Shown here: positions 4,625 through 26,098 of the stretch, piece by piece | Layout: the number at the start of each line of letters is the position of its first letter | Position numbering within the stretch: position 1 is the stretch's first letter | From: Victivallales bacterium | Lineage (GTDB): Bacteria; Verrucomicrobiota; Lentisphaeria; Victivallales; UBA1829 | DNA length: 32,000 bases | NCBI GenBank assembly: GCA_045589595.1 | Contig: JAZNPK010000043.1 | Span: forward strand, 82,623 to 114,622 | Direction: 5' to 3' | Position numbers and translations under genes: made by a program | Notes under the pieces: generated by a model | Told to the model about the DNA's origin: nothing | What the model saw: the letters and a program-made list of their open reading frames with translations, nothing else | Database searches by the model: none

Positions 4625-6769
4625 TTGATTATGAGTCGGTTGGTAATATCGTTTGTGAAAGAATGGTTGAACGAAAAGCGCAGCAATGGAATACGTGTGA
4701 TCCGTCAACTTGAAAAATGGATCGCTTCTCTGGATAATGTTACATTCAAGGGCGGCTCCGCCCGTGAACTGATCGTGGAATTGCCGACCGAAGAACGGGA
4801 AAAATTTCTGAAAGATCTGGCAGAACGGATGACCGTTGATTTCGGTGAGACCGATCCCTGGGCACATACGATCTTTTCTGGCGATATTGACGGATTGGAT
4901 GTGCCGACCGGAGAAACAGAAGAATCCGGATCCGGCGAAACAGAAGAAATTGAAGATGATCCTGTTCCGCCGTCCGAAGATGAATCCGGAAAAGATGAGA
5001 CTCCGGAGGATGACGGTCCGCAGAAATCCCACACCGGAAAACGCGAAGGCTTGCCAAAGAAACTTGAACAGATCTTCAGTAAAGTCCCGATCAGACATTG
5101 TCCCGTATTGGAAGCCTATGCTCGCGAGACGGTTGAGGTGATACCGATGCTGCAGAAGATGGGGACTGCGTCCGCGTTGTGGCATCAGCATCTGCTGTTG
5201 GCTGTTGATCCCGGTTATGGGTGTTCTGAATTTTTTAATGATCTGGTTCAGATCTACAGAACGTACGGACTTGTGAAGGGAGGGGCTGCGAAACGATACG
5301 TGCAGGAGTACGCTCTGCTGCCACGGGGCAAAATGCAGGACAATGATAATGATTACTGTGTCACCTGGGCGAATCTGCTCAAAAAAGTGCAGGAAACAGC
5401 GCATGAAAATAAGTACGAAGGTGTTTCCACAGTATTGATCTGTATCGATATATCAGAATGGCAATCTCTGCTGGCAACATCCGAATGCAAAGATTATCTG
5501 CGCCAGCTGAATTCGCTGTGCGGTACTTTTCTTATCGTGTTCCGGATCCCGTTTGTTGTGGGGAATATGCTGAACGCCACGGCTGATGCGCTGAACGACA
5601 TCCTGAATGTGCGCACACTTGCCGTCCCGCCGGTATCTCTCAATGATATGGTCGATTATACATGCGAGGAATTGAAAAAGAATGGGTTGAGTCTTGACGA
5701 CAACGCACGCAATTCTCTGGAACAGACTCTGCTGCTTGAAAAAAGAGACGACAGCTTTTTCGGTTACAAGACAGCAGATAAGATCGTGCGGAAGATGATC
5801 TATAACAAGGCCCTTGCAAATTGCCGCAGCAAAGAGGATAACCGGGTCATCACCACCGGTGAATTTGAGCCGATCCCCGGTACAGGTGCCGATGACGACC
5901 CCATTGCCGAACTGAAGAAAATGATCGGGATGAGCGAAGTGGAACGGCGTCTCAACGAAGTGATCATACAGGTCAAGACCCAGAGAAAACTTGCCGCCCA
6001 GGGAAAAAATGTGGCAAGACCCGCCATACACATGATCTTTACCGGGAACCCCGGTACCGGAAAAACAACGGTGGCACGCATTCTTGCCCGCATGATGCAG
6101 CAGGAAGGCATTTTGCGCAAAGGGCATTTTGTGGAAGTCAAGGGACGCGATCTCTGTGGACAGTACGTGGGCGAAACTGCCCCGAAAACAAGTGCGATCT
6201 GCCGGGATGCGTACGGCTCTGTACTCTTTATCGATGAGGCATATACTCTGTTCAATCGTGATTTGGGCAGCAGGGATTTCGGACGCGAAGCGTTGGATAC
6301 CCTTGTGGCGGAAATGGAAAATCATCGCGAAGATCTTTGTGTCGTCATGGCAGGTTACAAGGATGAAATGGAAGTAATGCTCAAAGCCAATGCCGGTCTC
6401 AAAGACCGCATCCCCTTCGAGATCGAATTCCCCAACTACACAAAGGATGAACTTGAACAGATATTCTTTGTGATGCTTGACGGCGTTTTCGAGTATGAAA
6501 ATGACCTGCAGGAGGCAGTACATAAATTTTTTGCGGAAATACCGCAGGAAACATTTACTTCCAAAGGTTTCAGCAATGCGCGCCTTGTACGTAATCTGTT
6601 CGAACGTACATGGTGCAAAGCTGCATGCCGTCAGAATATGGAAGGCGGAGAATTGCGTATCCTCAAAAGCGATTTGATCGGGGCCGCCGCAGACAGCGAA
6701 TTCAAGAAACTTTTAGCGCAGAAAGCTGTAAAACGGACAGCAATCGGGTTTAATGCTTTACAGAAATAA
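4625..6769 (+). CDS. Tandem AAA+ protein: unknown N-domain and acidic linker, degenerate AAA+ module, then an intact CbbX/SpoVK/EccA-type AAA+ ATPase module
   Basis: Walker A GNPGTGKT (6044-6067) and Walker B VLFIDEAY (from 6224). The CbbX-type continuation FGREALDTLVAEMENHREDLCVVMAGYKDEM...NAGLKDRIPFEIEFPNYTKDEL is present. The more likely start is the ATG at 4631, 10 nt after GAGGA. An upstream module has DPGYGCSE in the Walker-A position and VLICIDISEW in the Walker-B position. Confidence 0.9.
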   Translation: MIMSRLVISFVKEWLNEKRSNGIRVIRQLEKWIASLDNVTFKGGSARELIVELPTEEREKFLKDLAERMTVDFGETDPWAHTIFSGDIDGLDVPTGETEESGSGETEEIEDDPVPPSEDESGKDETPEDDGPQKSHTGKREGLPKKLEQIFSKVPIRHCPVLEAYARETVEVIPMLQKMGTASALWHQHLLLAVDPGYGCSEFFNDLVQIYRTYGLVKGGAAKRYVQEYALLPRGKMQDNDNDYCVTWANLLKKVQETAHENKYEGVSTVLICIDISEWQSLLATSECKDYLRQLNSLCGTFLIVFRIPFVVGNMLNATADALNDILNVRTLAVPPVSLNDMVDYTCEELKKNGLSLDDNARNSLEQTLLLEKRDDSFFGYKTADKIVRKMIYNKALANCRSKEDNRVITTGEFEPIPGTGADDDPIAELKKMIGMSEVERRLNEVIIQVKTQRKLAAQGKNVARPAIHMIFTGNPGTGKTTVARILARMMQQEGILRKGHFVEVKGRDLCGQYVGETAPKTSAICRDAYGSVLFIDEAYTLFNRDLGSRDFGREALDTLVAEMENHREDLCVVMAGYKDEMEVMLKANAGLKDRIPFEIEFPNYTKDELEQIFFVMLDGVFEYENDLQEAVHKFFAEIPQETFTSKGFSNARLVRNLFERTWCKAACRQNMEGGELRILKSDLIGAAADSEFKKLLAQKAVKRTAIGFNALQK

Positions 6770-6772
6770 TCA

Positions 6773-7303
6773 ATGAACGAAAGGAAAAAAAGTATGGAAC
6801 GGGAACAAATTGTATCTGTGGTGCGTGATTGGCTTGATGCAAATGACTGGAATTATGAATACGATGCAGAATACCACTACATCACAAGCGGTATCACCTG
6901 CGGCGGGAAATTTCAAGCAGTCAGACTGCTTGTTGCTTTCTCAGAATATTCTTACTCGGTATACACGATTGCGCCGCTCGCCTGCGAACAGGAATATATG
7001 GACGAACTCAACCGGTATATGTCGCATCTGAACTTTACGCTCCAGAACGGTTACTTCAGCATTGATATGAGGGATGGCGAGATCCGCTATAAGATCTTCG
7101 TAAATTGTGATGATCTGGAACAGCTCCCGGATGTGATCATCAGAGACAGCATTCTCCTCGGTGCTTTGATGATGAATAAATACGAAACCGCTATCGCCGG
7201 AGTGGCTTTGGGTTTTTCAGATGCAAAAACTGAAATCAAGAAGCTGGAAGGGGATGACGATGATATGGAAGATACGGATGACGATGCCGGGGCAGAGGAA
7301 TAA
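6773..7303 (+). CDS. YbjN-like (T3SS-chaperone-fold) protein with a poly-acidic C-terminal tail
   Basis: The pattern VVRDWLDANDWNYEYD...FQAVRLLVAF..YSVYTIAPL....MDELNRYMSHLNFTLQNGYFSIDMRDGEIRYKIF matches my memory of the YbjN family layout. The tail is EGDDDDMEDTDDDAGAEE. An alternative start at ATG 6794 has the better RBS (AAGGA, 8 nt upstream). Confidence 0.65.
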   Translation: MNERKKSMEREQIVSVVRDWLDANDWNYEYDAEYHYITSGITCGGKFQAVRLLVAFSEYSYSVYTIAPLACEQEYMDELNRYMSHLNFTLQNGYFSIDMRDGEIRYKIFVNCDDLEQLPDVIIRDSILLGALMMNKYETAIAGVALGFSDAKTEIKKLEGDDDDMEDTDDDAGAEE

Positions 7304-7332: not shown

Positions 7333-7376
7333 CTTTGAAGTTCACGTTGTGGAAAACACTGAAATGGAGTATGATA

Positions 7377-9272
7377 ATGAAAAAATTTTTTGACAGATAT
7401 TTGTTTTCGCGGATGGGACTTCAAATCGCTTTTTCTGTTTTGGCGATCCTGGCGTTTTCTGTATTGTTGACCTGCATCAAAAACGGCGCTACTGCTGCCG
7501 GAAATGATGCATCATACAGTCAGTTGTCGTGGGGATTCTGTCAACTGGCGGATGGCGGGTCCGTGACGACAACTCTGAAGGAACTTGATCAGATCCGCAT
7601 CGATGGCGGGAATGTGCCGGTTATACTTGTGATCGCATTGCTGTCATGGATCATCGGTATGATCCTGTGCGGTTTTGTCACCGGCGCGATCGTCAATGCC
7701 TTTGATGGCAGAAGAGACAAGATCAAATCCGGGCAGACACGCTACAAATTCAAAGATCACGGTCTGATCCTCGGCTGGGGGGGACAGGGAGTCGCTGTCG
7801 TTCAGAGTATGCTGCAGCCGCAGAAGATGATCAATGAGGTCCTCATCGTTTCGGAAACGCCTGCCGGAGAAATCACTGCCACGCTGAAGAAGATCCTGAA
7901 CGCATCTCAGTTGAGAAATATTTATATCTACAACTGCTCCGTCGATGTCATGGATAATATCAGGAAACTTCAGGCAGAACTCGCCCGGACCATTGTCATT
8001 CTCGGCGAACAGAATCATGCGGATAAAGACGGGGAAGCATTGCATACGGAACAGCTTCTCCAGAAATATGTACGGGAAAAAATCACGGTAGATACAAAAG
8101 AACAATTTACAAATCTCCCGATCAAACTTTATCTTCACCTTGAGGATCCCGCGCTTTATCTGCATGCACGCTCGGAGGAAAACGGTTTTGTGGAAGACGA
8201 TATCATCGACATCGAACTGTGCAATTTCTACGAAAGCTGGGCGTGGTATTGCTGGTCCAAAGCCAATTCCGCCGATAATTCCGGTGCGCCTTATCTGCCC
8301 CTGCGGCACAAGCGCGGTTCAACCCGTGTGGAATTGTTTGTGATCGGCTCCGATCCCATGGCTCAGGCTCTGGTCAATTACGCGATCCCTCTCCTGAATT
8401 ACGGCGAAAACAGCAAACACAGGATCACACTCTTTGATGCCGATGGTGATGGTGAGGACTGGCTGCCGAAACGGCAGGTGGCTGATTCCCTGCCGGAGGT
8501 CGAGATCGTCAGCAAACGATGCAGCGGCGGCTCCAATGAAGCCGGCGATATCATATATGAGGCTGCTGTGCGTGAAGATACTTCCGTAACGGTCGTGATC
8601 GCTGTCCCCGGCGCAGATGCTGCGGTAAAAGCCTATGCTGCGTTGTCGCATCAGGTCCGCCGCAAGGATATCTCTGTGCTGATCCGGCAGTCAACCGAAT
8701 GTGCCAACTGTATCGGAAAAGGATTGCTCCAGACGTGCGGAGATCATGCAGAACTCCGTTATTTCGGCATGACGGATATCCTGCCGTGGATGGATTCGTC
8801 CCGTGGGGAATACGGCAGAGATATCAATTACAGTTACGAAACCGTTGCGGCTGTTGTTGCAAAAAGCGATTTGAAACAAATTGAACCACCGGAAAAGTTT
8901 TTGGAGATCCTGAACATTGCGTTGCAGTGTCCGTACGGAAAAGAACAGCAGGATGAAGCCGAAAAACAGTGGCAGGGGATCCTGCGCTGGAAACGCTGGT
9001 CAAGCATCAGCACCGGTGACAGTTTCAAGGAAAAGGCATTTGCATTCCCCGATTGTACATCCAATGCGGAAAACTGCGTTGTTTTTCTGCGGGCGGAGCA
9101 TAACCGCTGGTGGGCTGAACGCCTGTTGGCGGGCTGGTGTTTTGCTGAAAAAAGAGACAATAAAGAATTTTTGCATCCGATGCTGACTGAGTTTGAAAAA
9201 CTGAGCGCAGAAACACAGTGTTATGATCTGCTCGGCATTGTCGCAATGAAAAATGCGGGATTATTGAAATAA
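7377..9272 (+). CDS. Membrane protein: 2-TM pore (CASTOR/POLLUX-like), two Rossmann/RCK-like domains and a C-terminal RyR domain
   Basis: TM1 is GLQIAFSVLAILAFSVLLTCI. A pore-loop-like segment YSQLSWGFCQLADGGSVTT carries ADGG at 7548-7559. TM2 is VPVILVIALLSWIIGMILCGFVTGAIVNAF. Rossmann motifs are GLILGWGGQGVAVV and VELFVIGSDPMAQAL. The C-terminal AEHNRWWAERLLAGWCFAEKRDNKEFLHPMLTEFEKLSAETQCYD is RyR-domain-like. ATG 7377 lies 7 nt after GGAG, and the track ORF begins at TTG 7335. Confidence 0.85.
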   Translation: MKKFFDRYLFSRMGLQIAFSVLAILAFSVLLTCIKNGATAAGNDASYSQLSWGFCQLADGGSVTTTLKELDQIRIDGGNVPVILVIALLSWIIGMILCGFVTGAIVNAFDGRRDKIKSGQTRYKFKDHGLILGWGGQGVAVVQSMLQPQKMINEVLIVSETPAGEITATLKKILNASQLRNIYIYNCSVDVMDNIRKLQAELARTIVILGEQNHADKDGEALHTEQLLQKYVREKITVDTKEQFTNLPIKLYLHLEDPALYLHARSEENGFVEDDIIDIELCNFYESWAWYCWSKANSADNSGAPYLPLRHKRGSTRVELFVIGSDPMAQALVNYAIPLLNYGENSKHRITLFDADGDGEDWLPKRQVADSLPEVEIVSKRCSGGSNEAGDIIYEAAVREDTSVTVVIAVPGADAAVKAYAALSHQVRRKDISVLIRQSTECANCIGKGLLQTCGDHAELRYFGMTDILPWMDSSRGEYGRDINYSYETVAAVVAKSDLKQIEPPEKFLEILNIALQCPYGKEQQDEAEKQWQGILRWKRWSSISTGDSFKEKAFAFPDCTSNAENCVVFLRAEHNRWWAERLLAGWCFAEKRDNKEFLHPMLTEFEKLSAETQCYDLLGIVAMKNAGLLK

Positions 9273-9308: not shown

Positions 9309-11885
9309 ATGAGTGAAAAATATCAGATTTTTTTGAGTTATTCGCACAAAGATGCGAAAGATTACGGTATCGATTACATCACGGAGATCAAACGGCAGAT
9401 CGAGGAATCCATCGGCGAAAATGTATTTCTGGATGTGGATGCACTGAGGCTGGGCAACGCGTGGAACGCTAAAATACAGGGGCATCTGGACAGAAGCAAA
9501 GTTTTTATCTGTCTGCTCTCTGAAAATTATATCAAGTCTGAATACTGCACCCGTGAACGCTTGTGGTGGGCGCAGAAGGAAATGGCGAAAGGCAGATTTC
9601 AGAAAGCAACACTGCCCGTCTTTTATATTCAGATCAAAACAGAGGATGAAACGATCCTGCAACGCTGGGAGGAAATGCAGATCCTTCAGAATGATGTGCG
9701 CCCCTGGTTCCCCGAAGGTGCCGGTCAGGTTGCTGCAAAATTGGTCAGTGAGCGTCTGAAAACTGCCAAACTTCTCGCCCGGATCGACCAGATCAGCAAG
9801 GATGAAGACACATGTTCAAAAATCATTTGTTCCGTTCCGCCTTACAATCTGAATTTTGTGGGACGCATCAAAGATTTGAGTAATGTCCGGCAGATTTGTC
9901 AGCACAGCGGGATGGCTGCCGGCTCCATTCCGGTGATCCACGGCGAACCGGGCTGTGGAAAAAGTGAGATCGCCTTTGCTTACGCACACGGTTATGCTTC
10001 TGAATATCCCGGCGGGCTTTTTTTTGTTCCGATGGAGCATGTGACAGAATGGAGTATGGCGTGGCAGAAACTCTCAAATGAATATGATAATAAACGCTGT
10101 ATGGCGATTTATGAACTTCTGGGCTTGAAGAAGGACGACCGGAAACTGCCGCCGGAAGAATTTGCGAAGACGTTCGCCCGGCAGATGTGGATCCATGTTT
10201 CCGACAGCGGCCGTACATTGATCCTCCTGGATAATCTTGACTGTATGGAGCTCATTTCGGAGGGCGGTCTGAAAAGACTGTTTCCCAATGGCAGTATCCC
10301 GGAAAATCTGGATCTGATCGCCACTACCCGGAATACGCCCCATCCGCTCCAGAACAGTAAGGCGGTTCCCGTCCCCATCGGTGATCTCGGGGAAGAAGCC
10401 GCACTGGAACTTTTGCGTTTGCATTGTGAAGGATCGGATTTCAATCAGGCGCCGCCGATGGATGGTGATGAGACAGCTGCCGCAAAAGAACTGCTGAGGT
10501 TTCTGCAATATCACGCATGGTCTGTGGAGATCATCGCCGGGTATCTGGGGCAGGAATACCGTTACGGGGCAACACCCCGGACGATTTTGGAACAGCTGAA
10601 AGATAATTTTGAGATCAACACAAGATACAAAACGCTCCGGGAGATCCCCGACAGCATTGATGCCCTGCTGAATCCGACCATTGAACAGATCCGGAAACAG
10701 GAATTAGGCGGGGAGATCCTCGAATTGGCAAGCGCAGCTGCCATGTTTTCGCCGGATGCCGTGGGACTCGATCTGCTCAGAAAGTTCTGGATAAAGCGTT
10801 ATGGCGGTGTGACTTGCAGTAAAACGGACTCCTGGCTTTTTGCATGGGAGACCCTGAAAGATCATCACCTGCTTTCTGTGGAAAATAACGGCATTTCCCG
10901 TATGCACCGTCTGACACAAAATTACTTTTTGAAATTCGGTCAGAAAAAACAGAAGGGGTTTGCAGATGATATCAGAATCACCATAGAACAGACCCCAAAA
11001 TCCGATTTTAAAAAAGAGGATGCCGTGGCTGTTGCCGGCTTGGCAAAATTCATCCTTGCGCAATCGTGGAACGGGGAATTTTTACATTCCATTCCCAACT
11101 GGGTGGAAGATATTTTGCTGGAATGGTATTGCATTGATGACGCAAAAATCCTGCTGGATGAACTGGAAAAAATCGCCAATGACCATAAGGACGATGCTGA
11201 TCTGGCATATTCATTGATCAGTATCCGTGGAAAATTTTATGAACGATCCGGCAACTTTGCGCAGGCATTGGAGAAGTATCAGAACGCGCTGAAAACGGCT
11301 CAAAATGCCAAAGATGATCAGATGATCGCTGGTTCTTATCTTTGCATCGGAAATGTGTATTCTGATCTTGGCGACTTTGAAAAAGCGCTTGAGTTTTATA
11401 CCAAAAGTTTGGAAATCAAAAAACAAACCCTTCCGGAAAATCACCCCGATATCGCAGTCTCCTACAATAACATTGGAAATGTGTATTATAATCTTGGCGA
11501 GCATAAAAAAACGCTTGAGTTTTATACTAAAAGTCTTGAAATCCGGCAACAAACCCTTCCGGAAAATCATCCCGATATCGCAGTCTCCTACAATAACATC
11601 GGGTGTGTGTATTCTGATCTTGGCGAGCATAAAAAATCGCTTGAGTTTTATACCAAAAGTCTTGAAATCCGGCAACAAACCCCTCCGGAAAATCACCCCG
11701 ATATCGCAGACTCCTACTATAACATTGGGTTAGTGTACAAAAGGCTGAAAGACTATGAAAATGCATTGTTGTCCTTTACAAAGGCAAAAGAGATTTATGC
11801 AATCTGCTATGGCGTGGAACATCCGGAAACCGTTGACTGCAATAAACGCATAGAGGACATCAAAGGCGAAATTGCAGCCGGCTAA
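9309..11885 (+). CDS. TIR-NB-ARC-TPR STAND NTPase (bacterial TIR-NLR-like)
   Basis: TIR region: IFLSYSHKD...VFICLLSENYIKSEYCTRERLWW, with the conserved Glu (E83) at 9555-9557. P-loop GEPGCGKS at 9942-9965, Walker B LILLDNLD, and the NB-ARC-like LIATTRN. The C-terminus has at least five TPR units of kinesin-light-chain type (ALEFYTKSLEI..QTLPENHPDIAVSYNNIGNVY). RBS GGAG sits upstream of the ATG. Confidence 0.92.
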   Translation: MSEKYQIFLSYSHKDAKDYGIDYITEIKRQIEESIGENVFLDVDALRLGNAWNAKIQGHLDRSKVFICLLSENYIKSEYCTRERLWWAQKEMAKGRFQKATLPVFYIQIKTEDETILQRWEEMQILQNDVRPWFPEGAGQVAAKLVSERLKTAKLLARIDQISKDEDTCSKIICSVPPYNLNFVGRIKDLSNVRQICQHSGMAAGSIPVIHGEPGCGKSEIAFAYAHGYASEYPGGLFFVPMEHVTEWSMAWQKLSNEYDNKRCMAIYELLGLKKDDRKLPPEEFAKTFARQMWIHVSDSGRTLILLDNLDCMELISEGGLKRLFPNGSIPENLDLIATTRNTPHPLQNSKAVPVPIGDLGEEAALELLRLHCEGSDFNQAPPMDGDETAAAKELLRFLQYHAWSVEIIAGYLGQEYRYGATPRTILEQLKDNFEINTRYKTLREIPDSIDALLNPTIEQIRKQELGGEILELASAAAMFSPDAVGLDLLRKFWIKRYGGVTCSKTDSWLFAWETLKDHHLLSVENNGISRMHRLTQNYFLKFGQKKQKGFADDIRITIEQTPKSDFKKEDAVAVAGLAKFILAQSWNGEFLHSIPNWVEDILLEWYCIDDAKILLDELEKIANDHKDDADLAYSLISIRGKFYERSGNFAQALEKYQNALKTAQNAKDDQMIAGSYLCIGNVYSDLGDFEKALEFYTKSLEIKKQTLPENHPDIAVSYNNIGNVYYNLGEHKKTLEFYTKSLEIRQQTLPENHPDIAVSYNNIGCVYSDLGEHKKSLEFYTKSLEIRQQTPPENHPDIADSYYNIGLVYKRLKDYENALLSFTKAKEIYAICYGVEHPETVDCNKRIEDIKGEIAAG
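11385..11762 (+). repeat. Three tandem 126-bp (42-codon) near-identical units encoding TPR pairs
   Basis: Units start at 11385, 11511 and 11637, each beginning (g/a/t)CGCTTGAGTTTTATAC(C/T)AAAAGT. Long identical runs such as CCGGAAAATCA(C/T)CCCGATATCGCAG recur in each unit. A more diverged unit precedes them from about 11259. Confidence 0.85.
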
Positions 11886-12038
11886 CTGGTGGGAAAAACT
11901 CAAACGCCTGTTCCGGAAGCAGCCGGGCTCGAAGACGAATAAGTGAGACTTTGCGTGCCGAACTGGTACTATCAGCAGAAAAACCGTGTGAAAGCGCAAT
12001 TTGAAAACATCAAACTGATGTGCAAATGAGTTGACGGA

Positions 12039-21852: not shown

Positions 21853-21949
21853 ATCTCATCTCCTGCGTTGGACGTTTTTTATACAGTAAAGCTCCGTGCG
21901 CGGAATGTCAAGCCACTGAAAAATTATTTTATTTTCCGGCATGCTGTTC

Positions 21950-21978
21950 TTGACTCCGGCGCGTTTATGTATTATAAT
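21950..21978 (+). promoter_or_regulatory. Near-consensus sigma70-type promoter for the large surface-protein gene
   Basis: TTGACT (21950-21955), a 17-nt spacer and TATAAT (21973-21978), 58 nt upstream of ATG 22037. Confidence 0.5.
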
Positions 21979-22036
21979 TATATTGCGGGATATGGTTTTG
22001 AACAGAGATGAAATAACTTTTTACGGGGGTAAAAAA

Positions 22037-25000
22037 ATGAGCCTGGAAAAAACATTGACAGTTGAAACGGTCGGGGATGCGGCAGAAATGGTTTCATCCG
22101 CCGCTGCAGTTACAATCGCCGCTTCCGATGCGGAAATCCTGCCGGATTCCGATGGCGGCGTGATCACCTCCGGGACCGTGACCACCATCGACGGTGTGCC
22201 GGAACTGGAATACATGCACGGCTGTACCGCCACTGTGATCGGTATGATCTTCGGTTATTACGACCGGAACGGGTACAAGGGCTACGATTTTTCCAACCTT
22301 ATTGACGGAAAAGCTGAACTTGATGCCAGAGGTCTGGACGGCAATATCCACGATATGGACGCCTTCGATACCAATCTGGGATCTGCCGTGGCTTCTGAAG
22401 AATTTGTGGCGCGTTTTGTCGGCACGACTCCGGCAAAGGAATTTCAGTATTCCTTCACCCAGTCCGGCAGCAATCTGTACCTGAATACATCCGCATGGAA
22501 CTGTATTGCCGACTATATCGGGACGGGGCAGTACTGGCGTCACAATACGGACAACTTCACGTCCCATTACTATGATACGCTCGCCGACATCAAAAACTAC
22601 ACATTCACGCTCGAAATTTCAGATTCCTCTACCGGAAAAACTGTGGATGTCCCGGCAAAATATGTTGATCTGCTCTACGGACTTGATCTGTACGTCACCT
22701 CCCGCGGATACAGTCTGGATGAAGATAAGACCCTGACCTCCTATGTCGATACCTACGAAGATAAAAACGGGACATTCACCTTCGAAGATTACAAGGCGGA
22801 GATCGATGCCGGAAGATGCGTGATCATATCCATCGAAGGTCATGCCATGCTCGGTTACGGATACGATGACAGCACCGATGAAGTCATTTTTGACGATACT
22901 TACAGACGGGATCAGCGGATGGAATGGGGCGGCAGTTACTACTATTCCGGCAGGTCCCGCGAAATGAGAAGCGTTACCACCATCGTGCTGGATACCACCG
23001 GTGAAAGTGCCTGGGTCCTGCCCGTACCCGATGCCCCTGAAAATCTCACTGCCAGTACCACCGCGCCGACCAATCAGAACGTGACTGTCACCGCCTCTTT
23101 CGATCCGGACGCATACGCCAACTGGTATTCGCTCAACCAGGGACAATCCTGGAAGCGCTATTACTCCTCCGGTGTTACAGTTTCAAGCAATCTTACCGTC
23201 AGTTTCAAAAGTACAAACAAAAACGGTGCGTCATCCAAGTCGGTCCATTACAAAGTCTCCAACATTGATAAAACTGCTCCGAATGCCCCCACGGTCGCCG
23301 TCAGCACCACTGCCGCCAATGTGTCCACGGTCACTGTCTCCGCCACATTCAGCAGTGATTCGGCGAAGAAACAGTATTCCTACGACAACTCTGTCTGGTA
23401 CACCTATCGCGGCAGCATCACGCTCTCCGCAAACGATACCCTCTATTTCCGGGGCATCGACGCTGCCGGAAATATTTCTGCTGTTGCTTCAAAGACCGTC
23501 AGCAATATTGCCGTTGCCGATGATCTGGAGAAACCGGTGATCACCGCCAGTACCACCGCCGCCACCAACAAAGATGTGATCCTGTGGGCGGATTCCGGCG
23601 ACAAGGCAGTGAAAGTGGAATATTCCAGAAACAATGCCGACTGGTTCACTTATGACGAAGCCACCGGCGTTTCCATGGCAGCCAACGGGACCGCTTATTT
23701 CCGCAGTGTCAATATTACCGGTGTGAAATCTGCGGTGACCACGTACAAGGTCACCAATATCGACAAAGTCGCGCCCACGGCGCCCACCACCGCTGTCAGC
23801 ACCACATCTTCCAATGTGAAATCCGTTACGGTCACCGCGTCTTACAGCAGCGATTCCGCCAAAAAGGAATATTCTTTCGACAAAACCGTCTGGCAGACGT
23901 ATTCCGGCGGTGTGACCGTGACCGAAAACAGAAGTCTGTATTTCCGCGGAACCGACGCCGCCGGAAACCATTCGTCCATCACTGCGCGGACCATCAGCAA
24001 CATTGCGGCAAATACTGTGACAACGCCCACGGTCACCGCCAGTACCACCAAGCCCACAAATCAGAATGTGGTCCTGACCGCCACATACACCACGGGCGGT
24101 TCCATTGAATATTCGCTCGACTATGAAATCTGGCAGTCCTGTCCCGCAGGCGGAAAACTGACCGTTACGCAGAATGCCACCATCTTTTTCCGCGGAGTGG
24201 ATAAATTCGGCAACCGTTCCGCGGCAAAACATTTCACCGTCAGCAATATCGACAAGACCGCACCCGCCAAGCCTACGGTCAGTGTCAGCACCTCGAAAAA
24301 GACCGAAGGGACCGTTACCGTTTACGCCGCTTTCGACAGCGATGCAAGTACCCGGCAGTACAGCCTCGACAACAAAACGTGGAAGACTTATTCCTCCGGC
24401 GTTTCCATGTCGAAAAACGGGACCGTTTATTTCCGGGGTGTGGATGCCGCCGGAAACCGTTCCGCAGTGGCGTCGTACAAAGTCAGCAATATTGTGGACC
24501 AGACCGCGCCCACAGGCGGCAAGATCACGCTGAAACAGACATCCGGCACCAGCGTTTCCGTTTCCATCAGCGGCTTCACAGACAAAGGCGGGATCGCACG
24601 TTATGACGTCTATCTGGCGGGTAAAAAGATCGGGTCCACCACAAGCACGGCTTATACCTACAAAGCCGCGTCCCAGCTCACCGGCACACTGAAATTTTCC
24701 GTGAAGGCGGTCGATACCTCCGGCAATGTGTCCGCCGGAAGATCCGCATCCCTGACCACAAAAAAATTCACCGTTCTGACCGTTGTCGGCACTGCCACCG
24801 AAAAGACCACGACTCTGAAATGGAATCCTGTCACGATGGCCGAACCGCTCAAGCAGTACGAGATTTCCATTGCGGGCGTGAAGAAAGTGTACAAGAGCAA
24901 GACCAACAGCGTCACCATCAAGAAACTGGCGGCGGGCAATCAGAAATTTACGGTGTACGCCGTGGACAAGGCGAAGAACCGCAAACTGGTTGCCTCCAAT

Positions 25001-26098
25001 GAAGAGATCCACATTAAAGACGTTACTGCGCCCAAAGGCGGCAGACTCAAACTCACCCAGAAGAGCCAGAACAGCGTCCAGATCGCCATCAGCAACTTCA
25101 AGGACAATGTGGGCGTAAAGAGTTACGAGGTCTATCTCGGCAGTACAAAAGTCGGCACGACCACAAGTTCCAGTTATACTTACAACGGCAAGGACCTTGG
25201 CGGGAAATTGCAGTTCAGCGTGTACGCAGTTGACGCCGCCGGAAACAAATCCAAGGCAAAAAAAGCATCCATCAAGATCAAGGATGCCACCGCGCCGACG
25301 AAAGTCACGGGACTGAAAGTTTCCGGTACGCCCAACGAAAAGACTTCCGTTCTGACATGGACCGCCGCAAAGGACAATGTGGGCGTGACGCAGTACGAGA
25401 TCAAGGTCTCCGGCAGCACGAAAGTTTACAAGAGCAAGACCAACAGCGTCACCATCAAGAAGTTGACGCCCGGCAAGCATACTTACACGGTGACCGCCAT
25501 CGACAAGGCGAAGAACCGCAGTACGGTCTCCGCGTCTGCCGCCTTCACGGTGAAGGACATCACTGCGCCCAAGGGCGGCAGCGTTAAACTGGCGCAGTCC
25601 GGCAACACCATCAAGTTCACCATCAGCAAGTTCAAAGACAACGTTGGCGTCAAGAGTTACGAGGTCTACCTCGGCGATAAAAAAGTCGGCACAACATCAA
25701 GCGCGGCTTACACATACAAAGGCGCGTTGACGGCAGGGAAGATGCAATTCAGTGTTGTTGCGGTTGACGCCGCGGGGAACAAATCCAAGGCGAAGAAGGC
25801 GTCCATCAAAGTGACTCCCGTTGCCGACAAGACCGGCGATGCATTGACGGAATTTCTGCCGGACAGCACCGGGTCTGTTGATCTGGCGGCATGGAACGAT
25901 CAGAACAGCGGTCTGAACGGCGGTGACGATCTTCCCGGCGGTCTGCTGCCAGACAGTGACGGGGACATGCTTTGCGGTACGGATCTCATTGATCTGGGCG
26001 AACTTACCGGCAACACAGACAACGCCGTCGGCGCTGTTGATCTGCTGAATGACGACCTCAAGAACAAGAGCAACGGCTTCAACGGAACGCTCGCCTGA
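22037..26098 (+). CDS. Large modular protein: C39-like/papain-like cysteine peptidase domain, six Ig-like repeats, five Fn3-like repeats and an acidic C-terminal tail
   Basis: ATG 22037 follows GGGGG. Putative catalytic Cys in YMHGCTATVIGMIFGYY (TGT at 22223-22225) and His in SIEGHAMLGYGYDD (CAT at 22841-22843). Six 79-86-aa repeats (23021-24508) follow the pattern P..PT...STT.PTN..V.V.A......YS.D...W..Y......N.T.YFRG.DAAGN.S......VSNID. Five alternating Fn3-like modules follow (about 24509-25810). Confidence 0.9.
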   Translation: MSLEKTLTVETVGDAAEMVSSAAAVTIAASDAEILPDSDGGVITSGTVTTIDGVPELEYMHGCTATVIGMIFGYYDRNGYKGYDFSNLIDGKAELDARGLDGNIHDMDAFDTNLGSAVASEEFVARFVGTTPAKEFQYSFTQSGSNLYLNTSAWNCIADYIGTGQYWRHNTDNFTSHYYDTLADIKNYTFTLEISDSSTGKTVDVPAKYVDLLYGLDLYVTSRGYSLDEDKTLTSYVDTYEDKNGTFTFEDYKAEIDAGRCVIISIEGHAMLGYGYDDSTDEVIFDDTYRRDQRMEWGGSYYYSGRSREMRSVTTIVLDTTGESAWVLPVPDAPENLTASTTAPTNQNVTVTASFDPDAYANWYSLNQGQSWKRYYSSGVTVSSNLTVSFKSTNKNGASSKSVHYKVSNIDKTAPNAPTVAVSTTAANVSTVTVSATFSSDSAKKQYSYDNSVWYTYRGSITLSANDTLYFRGIDAAGNISAVASKTVSNIAVADDLEKPVITASTTAATNKDVILWADSGDKAVKVEYSRNNADWFTYDEATGVSMAANGTAYFRSVNITGVKSAVTTYKVTNIDKVAPTAPTTAVSTTSSNVKSVTVTASYSSDSAKKEYSFDKTVWQTYSGGVTVTENRSLYFRGTDAAGNHSSITARTISNIAANTVTTPTVTASTTKPTNQNVVLTATYTTGGSIEYSLDYEIWQSCPAGGKLTVTQNATIFFRGVDKFGNRSAAKHFTVSNIDKTAPAKPTVSVSTSKKTEGTVTVYAAFDSDASTRQYSLDNKTWKTYSSGVSMSKNGTVYFRGVDAAGNRSAVASYKVSNIVDQTAPTGGKITLKQTSGTSVSVSISGFTDKGGIARYDVYLAGKKIGSTTSTAYTYKAASQLTGTLKFSVKAVDTSGNVSAGRSASLTTKKFTVLTVVGTATEKTTTLKWNPVTMAEPLKQYEISIAGVKKVYKSKTNSVTIKKLAAGNQKFTVYAVDKAKNRKLVASNEEIHIKDVTAPKGGRLKLTQKSQNSVQIAISNFKDNVGVKSYEVYLGSTKVGTTTSSSYTYNGKDLGGKLQFSVYAVDAAGNKSKAKKASIKIKDATAPTKVTGLKVSGTPNEKTSVLTWTAAKDNVGVTQYEIKVSGSTKVYKSKTNSVTIKKLTPGKHTYTVTAIDKAKNRSTVSASAAFTVKDITAPKGGSVKLAQSGNTIKFTISKFKDNVGVKSYEVYLGDKKVGTTSSAAYTYKGALTAGKMQFSVVAVDAAGNKSKAKKASIKVTPVADKTGDALTEFLPDSTGSVDLAAWNDQNSGLNGGDDLPGGLLPDSDGDMLCGTDLIDLGELTGNTDNAVGAVDLLNDDLKNKSNGFNGTLA
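24509..25810 (+). repeat. Intragenic modular repeat (A-B-A-B-A Fn3-like units) with a DNA-level period of about 534-537 bp
   Basis: GT(G/T)TACAAGAGCAAGACCAACAGCGTCACCATCAAGAA occurs at 24887 and 25424. TTCAA(G/A)GACAA(T/C)GT(G/T)GGCGT(A/C)AAGAGTTACGAGGTCTA occurs at 25097 and 25631. GTTGACGCCGC(C/G)GG(A/G)AACAAATCCAAGGC occurs near 25229 and 25757. Confidence 0.75.

Follow-up and report, generated by a model that had tools for sequence, protein, structure and literature searches.

The window analysed here, a 32,000-nucleotide stretch of contig JAZNPK010000043.1 from a Victivallales bacterium (assembly GCA_045589595.1), carries two adjoining forward-strand genes whose products may work together: a TIR-STAND-TPR protein (9309-11885), which by analogy might be regarded as a plant-NLR-like immune sensor of a gut bacterium, and directly upstream of it a membrane protein that ends in a RyR/R12 domain (7377-9272). 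We consider the chances even that the two form a pathway of the Thoeris kind, with the NLR-type TIR as the source of a signal and the adjacent RyR-domain channel as its receiver, a proposal made because the RyR domain keeps all residues known to contact cyclic ADP-ribose (cADPR) and adjoins a TIR gene. More tentatively, we suggest that a cADPR isomer produced by the NLR-type receptor directly gates an RCK-type channel through its C-terminal RyR Repeat12 domain. The wider interest lies in a channel-like cellular protein with a complete predicted cADPR pocket that is repeatedly encoded beside TIR genes.

The TIR domain and its putative catalytic glutamate

The original prediction, made from the letters of the DNA alone, had described 9309-11885 as a TIR-NB-ARC-TPR protein with all catalytic and NTPase motifs intact, and both the open reading frame (ORF) and every motif that it cited were located where it had placed them. 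The ORF opens with an ATG preceded by an AAGGAG Shine-Dalgarno sequence, and its exact sequence is recorded on an NCBI contig of 156 kb. When the whole protein was scanned with Pfam, TIR_2 (PF13676) matched aa 7-107 with 49.1 bits (cutoff 28) and TIR (PF01582) gave 28.2 bits (cutoff 21.3), the two matches together spanning aa 4-112; with the TIR domain scanned alone these scores rose to 53.3 bits (5e-14) and 32.1 bits (1.2e-7), respectively. The PDB chains that best matched the domain by phmmer were the L6 TIR, AbTIR and TcpB. The TIR motif SENYIKSEYCTRERLWW (aa 71-87) contains E83, which in the phmmer alignments falls on the catalytic Glu of flax L6 (WCLME) and of AbTIR (WTNYE), and Y79-C-T-R-E83 fits the [W/Y]xxxE pattern, with the Glu four residues past the conserved aromatic.

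A homologue search with aa 1-606 returned 17 sequences of 34-95% identity, and the few that carry names come from metagenome-assembled genomes (MAGs) of the Kiritimatiellae and Lentisphaeria. A scan of genome contigs with the NTPase alignment found a single locus, in a sheep-colon Lentisphaeria MAG, the search patterns being narrow enough that this understates the distribution. In the family alignment (16 sequences, 31-92% identity) E83 is invariant, as are G212/G215/G217/K218, D308/N309, T339, H402/W404/S405 and M532/H533/R534, a level of conservation far beyond chance. The predicted Glu at the TIR catalytic position was thereby borne out, by its alignment with the L6 and AbTIR residues and by its invariance in the 16 homologues.

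TIR-AP-ATPase-TPR architectures were reportedly catalogued by Leipe in 2004, and taken alone the protein is a further example of an architecture catalogued since then and antiphage-validated in E. coli. The architecture is among those listed for bacteria by Kaur 2020 (PMC7159879), and the TIR-NLR of an E. coli P4 satellite has been validated as antiphage (Rousset 2022, PMC9122126), so that the TIR-STAND protein with its intact catalytic motif does belong, as had been claimed, to a kind proven antiphage elsewhere. With bacterial TIR-STAND/TIR-NLR proteins it shares the N-terminal TIR with catalytic Glu, the AP-ATPase/NB-ARC-type STAND module and the C-terminal TPRs, and also the predicted mode of action, in which ligand-triggered oligomerisation would activate the TIR. 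It differs in that its gene is paired with a RyR-channel gene, which is the case in no described TIR-STAND system, and in having a Walker B with DN, no GLPL and no PADLOC match to Avs or TIR-NLR models. The FxsC-type TIR-AP-ATPases are likewise distinct, the window protein reaching only 42 bits against NCBIfam FxsC_Nterm (cutoff 130).

An NB-ARC-like STAND NTPase

Curated profiles do not place the central NTPase. Scanned alone, the region scored 14.7 bits against Pfam NB-ARC (PF00931), under the cutoff of 23.5, and was also sub-threshold against the other STAND models (NACHT 15.5, cutoff 26.7; nSTAND3 16.0). On the other hand, an AlphaFold2 model of aa 165-612, built from a 10-sequence alignment (pLDDT 86.4, pTM 0.82), had ADP-bound Apaf-1 (1z6t) as its top Foldseek match in the PDB (3e-11) and superimposed on the tomato NRC1 NB-ARC domain (8bv0) with a TM-score of 0.77 on the target and a root-mean-square deviation of 4.2; the top 28 matches were all Apaf-1, NRC1-4, CED-4, ZAR1, Sr35, RPP1 or WRR4A, and no NACHT or Avs structure was found within the first 50. 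A phmmer search with the NTPase region against 1.84 billion representatives gave 613 matches at E <= 1e-3, 218 at <= 1e-10 and 31 at <= 1e-30. Among the 43 nearest representative clusters TIR_2 is present in 29 and TPR_12 in 18, and their NTPases match NB-ARC in 13 cases (best 7.5e-12), NACHT in 6 (best 6.6e-6) and only the generic AAA_16 in the remaining 24.

By modelled structure and by its relatives, then, the NTPase is an NB-ARC-like (AP-ATPase-fold) STAND module, though below the curated profile cutoff; the original NB-ARC assignment stands at the level of fold and family but not at the Pfam threshold. A NACHT identity was considered and rejected: in Pfam the two are tied below threshold, and the AlphaFold2 model, Foldseek and the scan of the 43 relatives favour the AP-ATPase/NB-ARC-like fold. 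Membership of Avs/AVAST or another system catalogued in PADLOC was ruled out, as no Avs or NLR model matched 9309-11885; only TPR, PDC-S66 (1.1e-9, in the TIR part) and weak TIR models did.

Across the 43 diverse relatives G215, G217 and K218 are invariant, as are D308 and T339, and N309, R341 and H533 are conserved in at least 90%. In the model a helix begins at the MHD-like motif, and a beta-hairpin precedes the motif. The claim that all NTPase motifs are intact is accordingly right for the P-loop and the TTR sensor motif, both canonical, but not for the rest: the position of GLPL is occupied by HAWS(V/L)EIIAG (HAWSVEIIAG here), the MHD reads MHR, and at D308-N309 (10230-10235) hhhhDN replaces the NB-ARC hhhhDD throughout the family. 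By analogy with Walker-B mutants of plant NLRs, the DN variant might slow ATP hydrolysis and give a long-lived 'on' state.

A variable TPR array

The expected TPR nature of the C-terminal third was confirmed by strong Pfam matches to TPR_12, TPR_1 and TPR_10 over aa ~615-850, and the PDB matches of the region are TPRs of the kinesin-light-chain type. Alleles of the same species, sampled in L042-L047 and P0002-P0004, range from 836 to 1026 aa with 2-6 TPR units, although their TIR-NTPase regions (aa 1-606) are 93-95% identical. The array presumably grows and shrinks by recombination, and its copy-number variation among close strains fits a fast-evolving receptor. The alleles also differ at their very ends. 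A basic, Trp-rich tail, NWWEKLKRLFRKQPGSKTNK*, is in frame in P0001, P0002, L043 and L045, with similar tails in P0006-P0008; the window allele ends in IKGEIAAG* and, like P0004 and L042, has lost the tail via a local change. One possible role for this tail is that of an amphipathic helix for membrane contact or oligomerisation.

The order of TIR, NB-ARC-fold module and repeat sensor is that of plant TNLs (RPP1, ROQ1, WRR4A), two of which, RPP1 and WRR4A, Foldseek also returned for the NTPase model, and the logic would also be similar, since in plant TNL immunity the small molecule made by the TIR ultimately opens a cation channel. In contrast to plant TNLs, however, the sensor consists of TPR_12/TPR_10 units only, without LRR and C-JID, the Pfam NB-ARC cutoff is not reached, and the proposed receptor is directly a RyR-domain RCK channel in place of EDS1 heterodimers and CC(R)-NLRs. 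The label 'plant-TNL-like' describes an analogy only and not orthology, the C-terminus being TPR rather than LRR.

A channel-like neighbour with a predicted cADPR pocket

The upstream ORF as listed (7335-9272) begins with TTG; its true start is probably M15, ATG 7377, in keeping with homologues that begin MKKFFDRY and with the NCBI call of 631 aa (the ligand-contact residues below are numbered on the listed ORF). The match to Pfam RyR (PF02026) lies exactly on the gathering cutoff (27.4 bits against 27.4; 4e-6). Searched against the PDB with phmmer, the C-terminal 115 aa matched Repeat12 of RyR1-3, among them a RyR1 chimera (6uhi, 1.3e-10) and RyR3 (5.5e-8), which makes this domain homologous to animal RyR Repeat12, as well as the Bacteroides RyR-like protein 3NRT (3e-4) and RyDEP (35TM, 6e-3).

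RyDEP, gp78 of mycobacteriophage DyoEdafos, is a glycosidase that cleaves 2'/3'cADPR; in its structure with 3'cADPR (35TM) the catalytic dyad, H75 and D117, contacts the terminal ribose, the adenine is stacked against W78, and the phosphates are held in place by H100 (PMC13232231). These four residues align exactly with H589, W592, H614 and D631 of the window protein, with the same spacing in both (H, W+3, H+25, D+42), and the tetrad is invariant in a 12-sequence alignment of the RyR family. RyR Tad (Pectobacterium phage CB1 gp68) uses equivalent residues to bind 1''-3' gcADPR at 43 nM, and binds 1''-2' gcADPR and cADPR with sub-micromolar affinity (10.64898/2026.06.04.730250). From the identity of these residues we predict that the RyR/R12 domain of the window protein carries a pocket for a TIR-derived nucleotide. 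RyDEP and RyR Tad share PF02026 with it, and RyDEP a tetrad of the same kind and spacing, but both are viral proteins, small soluble dimers by which host signals are destroyed or sequestered, whereas here the domain belongs to a 631-aa cellular membrane protein. A RyR domain in a cellular RCK membrane protein beside a TIR gene would therefore sit at the receiving end of a pathway and not in counter-defence.

The remainder of the protein resembles a channel. Hydropathy shows two hydrophobic segments, and the AlphaFold2 model (pLDDT 78, pTM 0.71) has two long hydrophobic helices with short ones between them (aa ~27-131), followed by two Rossmann-type lobes and the helical C-terminal domain. Foldseek matched this model to the CASTOR and DMI1 gating rings (5e-6), Slo1/BK, Slo2.2, NAD-bound GsuK and MthK. 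The family comprises 66 clusters, one with PF22614 and some with Ion_trans and Ion_trans_2, and the relatives with the latter two domains support a tentative assignment of the protein to the RCK channels; on the model it looks like a 2-transmembrane (TM), tandem-RCK channel ending in a RyR/R12 domain. On this view it would share with the RCK channels (MthK, GsuK, Slo1/BK, CASTOR/DMI1) an N-terminus of two TM segments resembling a pore, with two RCK lobes of the Rossmann type behind it, and it differs from them in its putative filter sequence, which is non-canonical. To our knowledge no RCK channel described so far carries a RyR domain.

Elsewhere RyR-family genes often stand in arrays of 2-3 paralogues (L012:8001-15881 and likewise L026, L011:6079-9902, L023, L024 and L031), and in one of these arrays a paralogue of 798 aa has Ion_trans/Ion_trans_2 pore domains and a gene for an AI-2E-family transporter is interleaved. 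Such arrays suggest hetero-oligomeric channels or diversified receptors.

TIR genes near several RyR-family genes

Loci of the RyR family were gathered via the RyR protein only, by protein look-ups and a metagenome scan. When 75 neighbours at 12 independent RyR loci were scanned with Pfam, TIR_2 proved the commonest family (5 proteins, best 1.6e-25), and with PADLOC the models ranked first among neighbours were SAVED_TIR, ThsB and PDC-S66, all of the TIR type and not generic to defence; restriction-modification and CBASS genes were absent from the 25 commonest PADLOC families. At six loci (L020, L027, L029, L031, L032 and L033; Table 1) TIR genes of differing architecture lie within 7 kb of the RyR gene, directly adjoining it in L020, L027, L029 and L032, and in every one of them the catalytic W-x3-E is retained, as judged by direct inspection of [W/Y]xxxE. 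In addition, a 1323-aa STAND protein of the same NTPase family as that of the window is encoded one gene away from the RyR gene in L010/L016.

The island L008 (1-22664), where one TIR-STAND-TPR homologue (P0013, 38% identity) sits, joins both families in another form. It encodes a 251-aa TIR protein, a soluble 624-aa RyR-domain protein with the H/W/H/D tetrad, a 917-aa TM protein with HNRWW, a 1386-aa TIR-STAND paralogue and an 887-aa TIR-STAND-TPR protein, the soluble RyR and TM proteins lying between the TIR gene and the TIR-STAND paralogues; it further holds two NADAR, two FGE-sulfatase and two YbjN-like genes, a DSPc phosphatase and VanW. It is, in other words, an island dense in NAD/ADP-ribose-themed genes.

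Altogether TIR genes occur at 7 independent RyR-family loci, corresponding to 5 of the 11 best-flanked ones, and the RyR-TIR association looks strong and specific, although it is not obligatory. A large TPR protein beside the RyR genes of L011 was examined as a possible STAND homologue and discarded, its match being confined to the TPR region. Near TIR-less RyR genes we also noted NAD-dependent-type DNA ligase adenylation/OB proteins (DNA_ligase_aden, with a weak DNA_ligase_A_C match; L011:3954-5846 and L012:17266-18397), which might be alternative nucleotide-handling partners.

A proposed pathway and its relation to Thoeris

In the pathway that we envisage, the variable TPR array would bind an invader (phage) protein and the STAND module would be released to exchange nucleotide and oligomerise, bringing the N-terminal TIR domains together into active NAD+-cleaving sites centred on E83. 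The TIR product would be a diffusible signal, most likely a cADPR isomer, that binds the C-terminal RyR/R12 domain of the adjacent 2-TM/tandem-RCK protein; the channel would then open or otherwise become active, ion gradients would collapse and the infection would be aborted. Consumption of NAD+ itself may add to the effect.

The closest parallel in this respect is Thoeris type X. The Thoeris survey of Yirmiya et al. 2025 lists 29 putative effector classes, among which the validated type X consists of a ThsB TIR and the 'ion channel' ThsK (10.64898/2025.12.03.692087). The same survey set aside, as NAD+-depleting effectors, those TIRs that form part of Avs proteins, and it is silent on RyR; for type X it reports that the TIRs yielded no known cADPR isomer (10.64898/2025.12.03.692087). 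As in type X, the TIR gene of the window adjoins a membrane/channel-type gene whose product could respond to a nucleotide made by the TIR, with variable TIR partners around a constant effector family, and as to the adjacency expected of a Thoeris-type locus the TIR and candidate effector genes are co-oriented with a gap of 36 bp. Unlike type X, the window TIR is fused to a STAND NTPase and a TPR sensor, a class outside that survey, and RyR domains bind cADPR isomers, which type X TIRs did not make. The two TIRs show no detectable similarity in BLASTP (window TIR versus the Vibrio type X ThsB of Table S1, E = 59), and the PADLOC ThsB match of the window TIR is marginal (E = 0.009). A tblastn search of plasmids with type X ThsB gave matches of which two were inspected, and both proved to be type II (macro-domain) loci.

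Counter-evidence and competing explanations

Quite a few observations weigh against signalling between the two proteins. To begin with the TIR side, three of the five independent TIR-STAND-TPR homologue contexts are stand-alone, with P0011 (46% identity), P0006 (61%) and P0008 (51%) lying among housekeeping genes in L001, L005 and L006, and because of this signalling to a partner is not obligatory for the family. The closest relatives of the two window proteins, P0006 (TIR-STAND) and P0022 (RyR protein), are both unpaired, so the pairing in the window may be a recent juxtaposition. On the RyR side, no TIR gene is in reach in L009, L011, L012/L026, L014/L015, L023/L024 and L034, and about half of the well-flanked RyR loci (L009, L011, L012, L014 and L034) have none within 7 kb; moreover, a few rumen/gut metagenome projects supplied many of the loci, which makes their independence imperfect. 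As regards the channel, the Foldseek matches have a probability of 1.0 but modest TM-scores of 0.3-0.4, and the sequence of the putative pore loop, WGF.Q..DGGS, departs from the canonical K+ filter. Finally, TIRs of STAND/Avs proteins are generally treated as NAD+-depleting effectors (10.64898/2025.12.03.692087), and the retained His/Asp dyad of the RyR pocket could mean that it degrades the signal and does not sense it.

Since homologues stand alone elsewhere and Avs-type TIRs are usually so read, the main competitor is an autonomous single-gene TIR-STAND (Avs/TIR-NLR-like), whose TIR, activated through TPR sensing and STAND oligomerisation, would act purely as an NAD+-depleting abortive-infection effector, with the RyR gene an unrelated or independent neighbour brought in by defence-island shuffling. 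We regard this as somewhat unlikely. It would accommodate the stand-alone contexts, the unpaired nearest relatives and the view of Avs TIRs as NADase effectors (10.64898/2025.12.03.692087), and the E. coli TIR-NLR does protect unaided (PMC9122126); yet it leaves unexplained why a TIR is the top neighbour of RyR genes at independent loci and in varied TIR architectures, and why the RyR pocket fully retains the cADPR-contact residues. The RyR neighbourhoods also lack the usual mixed defence genes, and the same-strand spacing of 36 bp is kept in all sampled strains.

The dyad raises another alternative, in which the RyR membrane protein is a regulator that hydrolyses or sequesters cADPR-type products like RyDEP and RyR Tad, thereby setting a threshold or guarding against leaky TIR activity, with the TIR or another protein as the executor. 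H589 and D631 do match the catalytic dyad H75/D117, the RyR-domain proteins studied experimentally are sponges or glycosidases (PMC13232231; 10.64898/2026.06.04.730250), and L008 has NADAR-type ADP-ribose-processing genes beside its TIR-STAND paralogues. A 2-TM, tandem-RCK architecture with Ion_trans-fused relatives is nevertheless hard to square with a mere sponge or hydrolase, and most RyDEP homologues with the same residues bind the ligand without cleaving it (PMC13232231). We consider this reading improbable.

Least likely of all, and in our view highly improbable, is a locus without antiviral function, in which the TIR-STAND-TPR protein is a regulatory or cell-fate switch and the RyR-RCK protein a housekeeping cation channel gated by ATP, ADP or NAD. 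Parallels exist in the STAND-based 'conflict/apoptosis-like' systems of social bacteria, RyR Repeat12 also binds ATP/ADP analogues (PMC13232231; 10.64898/2026.06.04.730250), and GsuK, one of the structural matches, binds NAD/ADP in its RCK domains. The setting, too, is not that of a classic defence island, the four same-strand genes (gaps of 3, 73 and 36 bp), of which the TIR-STAND-TPR gene is the last, being flanked by housekeeping genes (GH39 and HhH-GPD), and neither family had relatives on the IMG/VR viral contigs nor the RyR protein any match on plasmids. However, the GC content of the block is below that of its flanks, the family is patchily distributed across taxa and genomes, the TPR array varies in copy number between strains, and the TIR- and NADAR-rich island L008 and the ThsB-like partners are hallmarks of conflict systems.

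What the pairing would mean

The coupling of an RCK channel that bears a RyR domain to an NLR-type TIR, the basis of the Thoeris-like pathway proposed here, appears to be undescribed, type X having been compared on its TIR side only. Full-text literature searches, with partial coverage that is not proof of absence, turned up no study that connects the RyR-domain proteins of cells with TIR genes. The 2026 preprints on RyR/R12 domains that bind or cleave 2'/3'cADPR cover phage proteins only (PMC13232231; 10.64898/2026.06.04.730250), and a cellular protein that uses a RyR domain to receive TIR signals appears not to have been described so far. Although speculative, the implications would be considerable. 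If the pathway is real, it would represent a new Thoeris-like effector class, NLR-fused bacterial TIRs could signal, as plant TNLs do, beyond depleting NAD+, and the RyR-domain sponges of phages would be explained as mimics of a host receptor. In animals, direct binding of cADPR to RyR is still debated. A small and tractable bacterial channel would allow one to ask whether cADPR-family ligands gate via RyR Repeat12, and a prokaryotic 'cADPR to RyR-domain channel' axis would offer a simple model for this debated issue of animal Ca2+ signalling.

Table 1. Coordinates of features in the window, followed by TIR genes found near RyR-family genes at other loci
Feature	Position	Strand	Basis or remark
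TIR / NB-ARC-like STAND NTPase / TPR protein, 858 aa	9309..11885	+	ORF translation, Pfam, 17 homologues
TIR domain (aa 1 to ~144)	9309..9740	+	Pfam TIR_2, TIR
Putative catalytic Glu E83 of TIR NADase/cyclase site	codon GAA 9555-9557	+	alignment, conservation
STAND NTPase module (nucleotide-binding domain, helical domain, winged helix; aa 165-612)	9801..11144	+	NB-ARC/AP-ATPase-like by fold
Walker A / P-loop GEPGCGKS (K218; aa 212-219)	9942..9965	+	motif, conservation
Walker B LILLDNLD (D308, N309; aa 304-311)	10218..10241	+	DN in place of NB-ARC DD
Sensor-1 / RNBS-B-like LIATTRN (T339, R341; aa 336-342)	10314..10334	+	motif, conservation
MHD-like RMHRLT (His533) in winged-helix domain	10899..10916	+	alignment, AlphaFold2 model
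TPR sensor region (aa ~615-858)	11151..11885	+	TPR_12 (5.2e-45) and other TPR families
126-bp tandem repeat, 3.0 copies, 89% matching, 42-aa TPR unit	11345..11725	+	TRF
Out-of-frame remnant of conserved tail (NWWEKLKRLFRKQPGSKTNK*)	11884..11945	+	directly past stop; compared with P0001/P0002 C-termini
Candidate effector, 631-aa membrane protein: 2 TM and pore-like region, tandem RCK-like region, C-terminal RyR/R12	7377..9272	+	
RyR/R12 domain (aa ~540-645 of ORF 7335-9272)	8952..9272	+	Pfam PF02026
Predicted ligand-contact tetrad	H589 9099-9101, W592 9108-9110, H614 9174-9176, D631 9225-9227	+	
CbbX/SpoVK/EccA-type AAA+ ATPase, 712 aa, with lineage-specific 430-aa N-terminal region	4631..6769	+	Pfam AAA 3e-19
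YbjN-like 176-aa protein	6773..7303	+	travels with AAA+ gene, not RyR/TIR genes
L020: TIR-TIR-15xSel1, 1452 aa	directly downstream of RyR gene		hidden Markov model (HMM) search
L027: one TIR gene	directly upstream of RyR gene		HMM search
L029: TIR genes of 1154 aa and 403 aa	upstream; 403-aa gene directly downstream		HMM search
L031: TIR gene, 487 aa	within 7 kb of RyR gene		HMM search
L032: one TIR gene	directly downstream of RyR gene, at contig end		HMM search
L033: two TIR genes	within 7 kb of RyR gene		HMM search

A separate AAA+/YbjN-like module upstream

The original prediction had treated the TIR-STAND-TPR gene as the last member of a cassette, and possibly as sensor and signal generator for the genes upstream of it. 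In fact, the four genes, their flanks and the RyR-TIR spacing are the same in six contigs sampled from this species. The first two genes, however, are found together elsewhere. The AAA+ protein gave sub-threshold NCBIfam matches to SpoVK, CbbX and EccA and belongs to a family whose homologues, about 700 aa long, form more than 125 clusters in the Kiritimatiellae and Lentisphaeria; the TTG start listed for its ORF (4625) is probably wrong, homologues and database calls using ATG 4631 (MSRLVISF, 712 aa). The 176-aa protein has no Pfam match of its own but is homologous to L008:20788-21288 (E about 1e-16 to 4e-19), which itself matches YbjN at 1.4e-5. An AAA+ gene followed by a homologue of the 176-aa protein recurs in L040 (Lentisphaeria, 7e-53) and L041 (Kiritimatiellae, 3e-50), neither of which has RyR or TIR genes in the AAA+ context; the pair spans 4631-7303 in the window, L040:7001-9704 and L041:7001-9615, and the small protein measures 158-176 aa. 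In L040 a 1015-aa TPR protein is divergently encoded upstream of the AAA+ gene.

This makes the AAA+ and YbjN-like genes a two-gene module of their own, conserved in the Kiritimatiellae and Lentisphaeria. Because this pair occurs at other loci that lack RyR and TIR genes, and because the AAA+ family extends across the whole lineage, we rejected the idea that all four genes make up one system. Physically the TIR-STAND-TPR gene is indeed the last of the four, but the block splits into two modules, and the suggested role as sensor and signal generator gains support for the RyR gene immediately upstream, with its tetrad and recurrent TIR neighbours, and not for the AAA+ and YbjN-like genes.

A scan of the window for promoters and terminators gave counts near shuffled expectation and is uninformative for this phylum. 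Further downstream, at 21941-26098, lies a gene unrelated to the TIR and RyR genes; its product of 1385 aa has fn3 and Big_7 domains and is probably secreted or exposed at the surface, and around it the AT skew is strong (0.10-0.27 at 23-26 kb) and the GC skew is negative at 23-25 kb.

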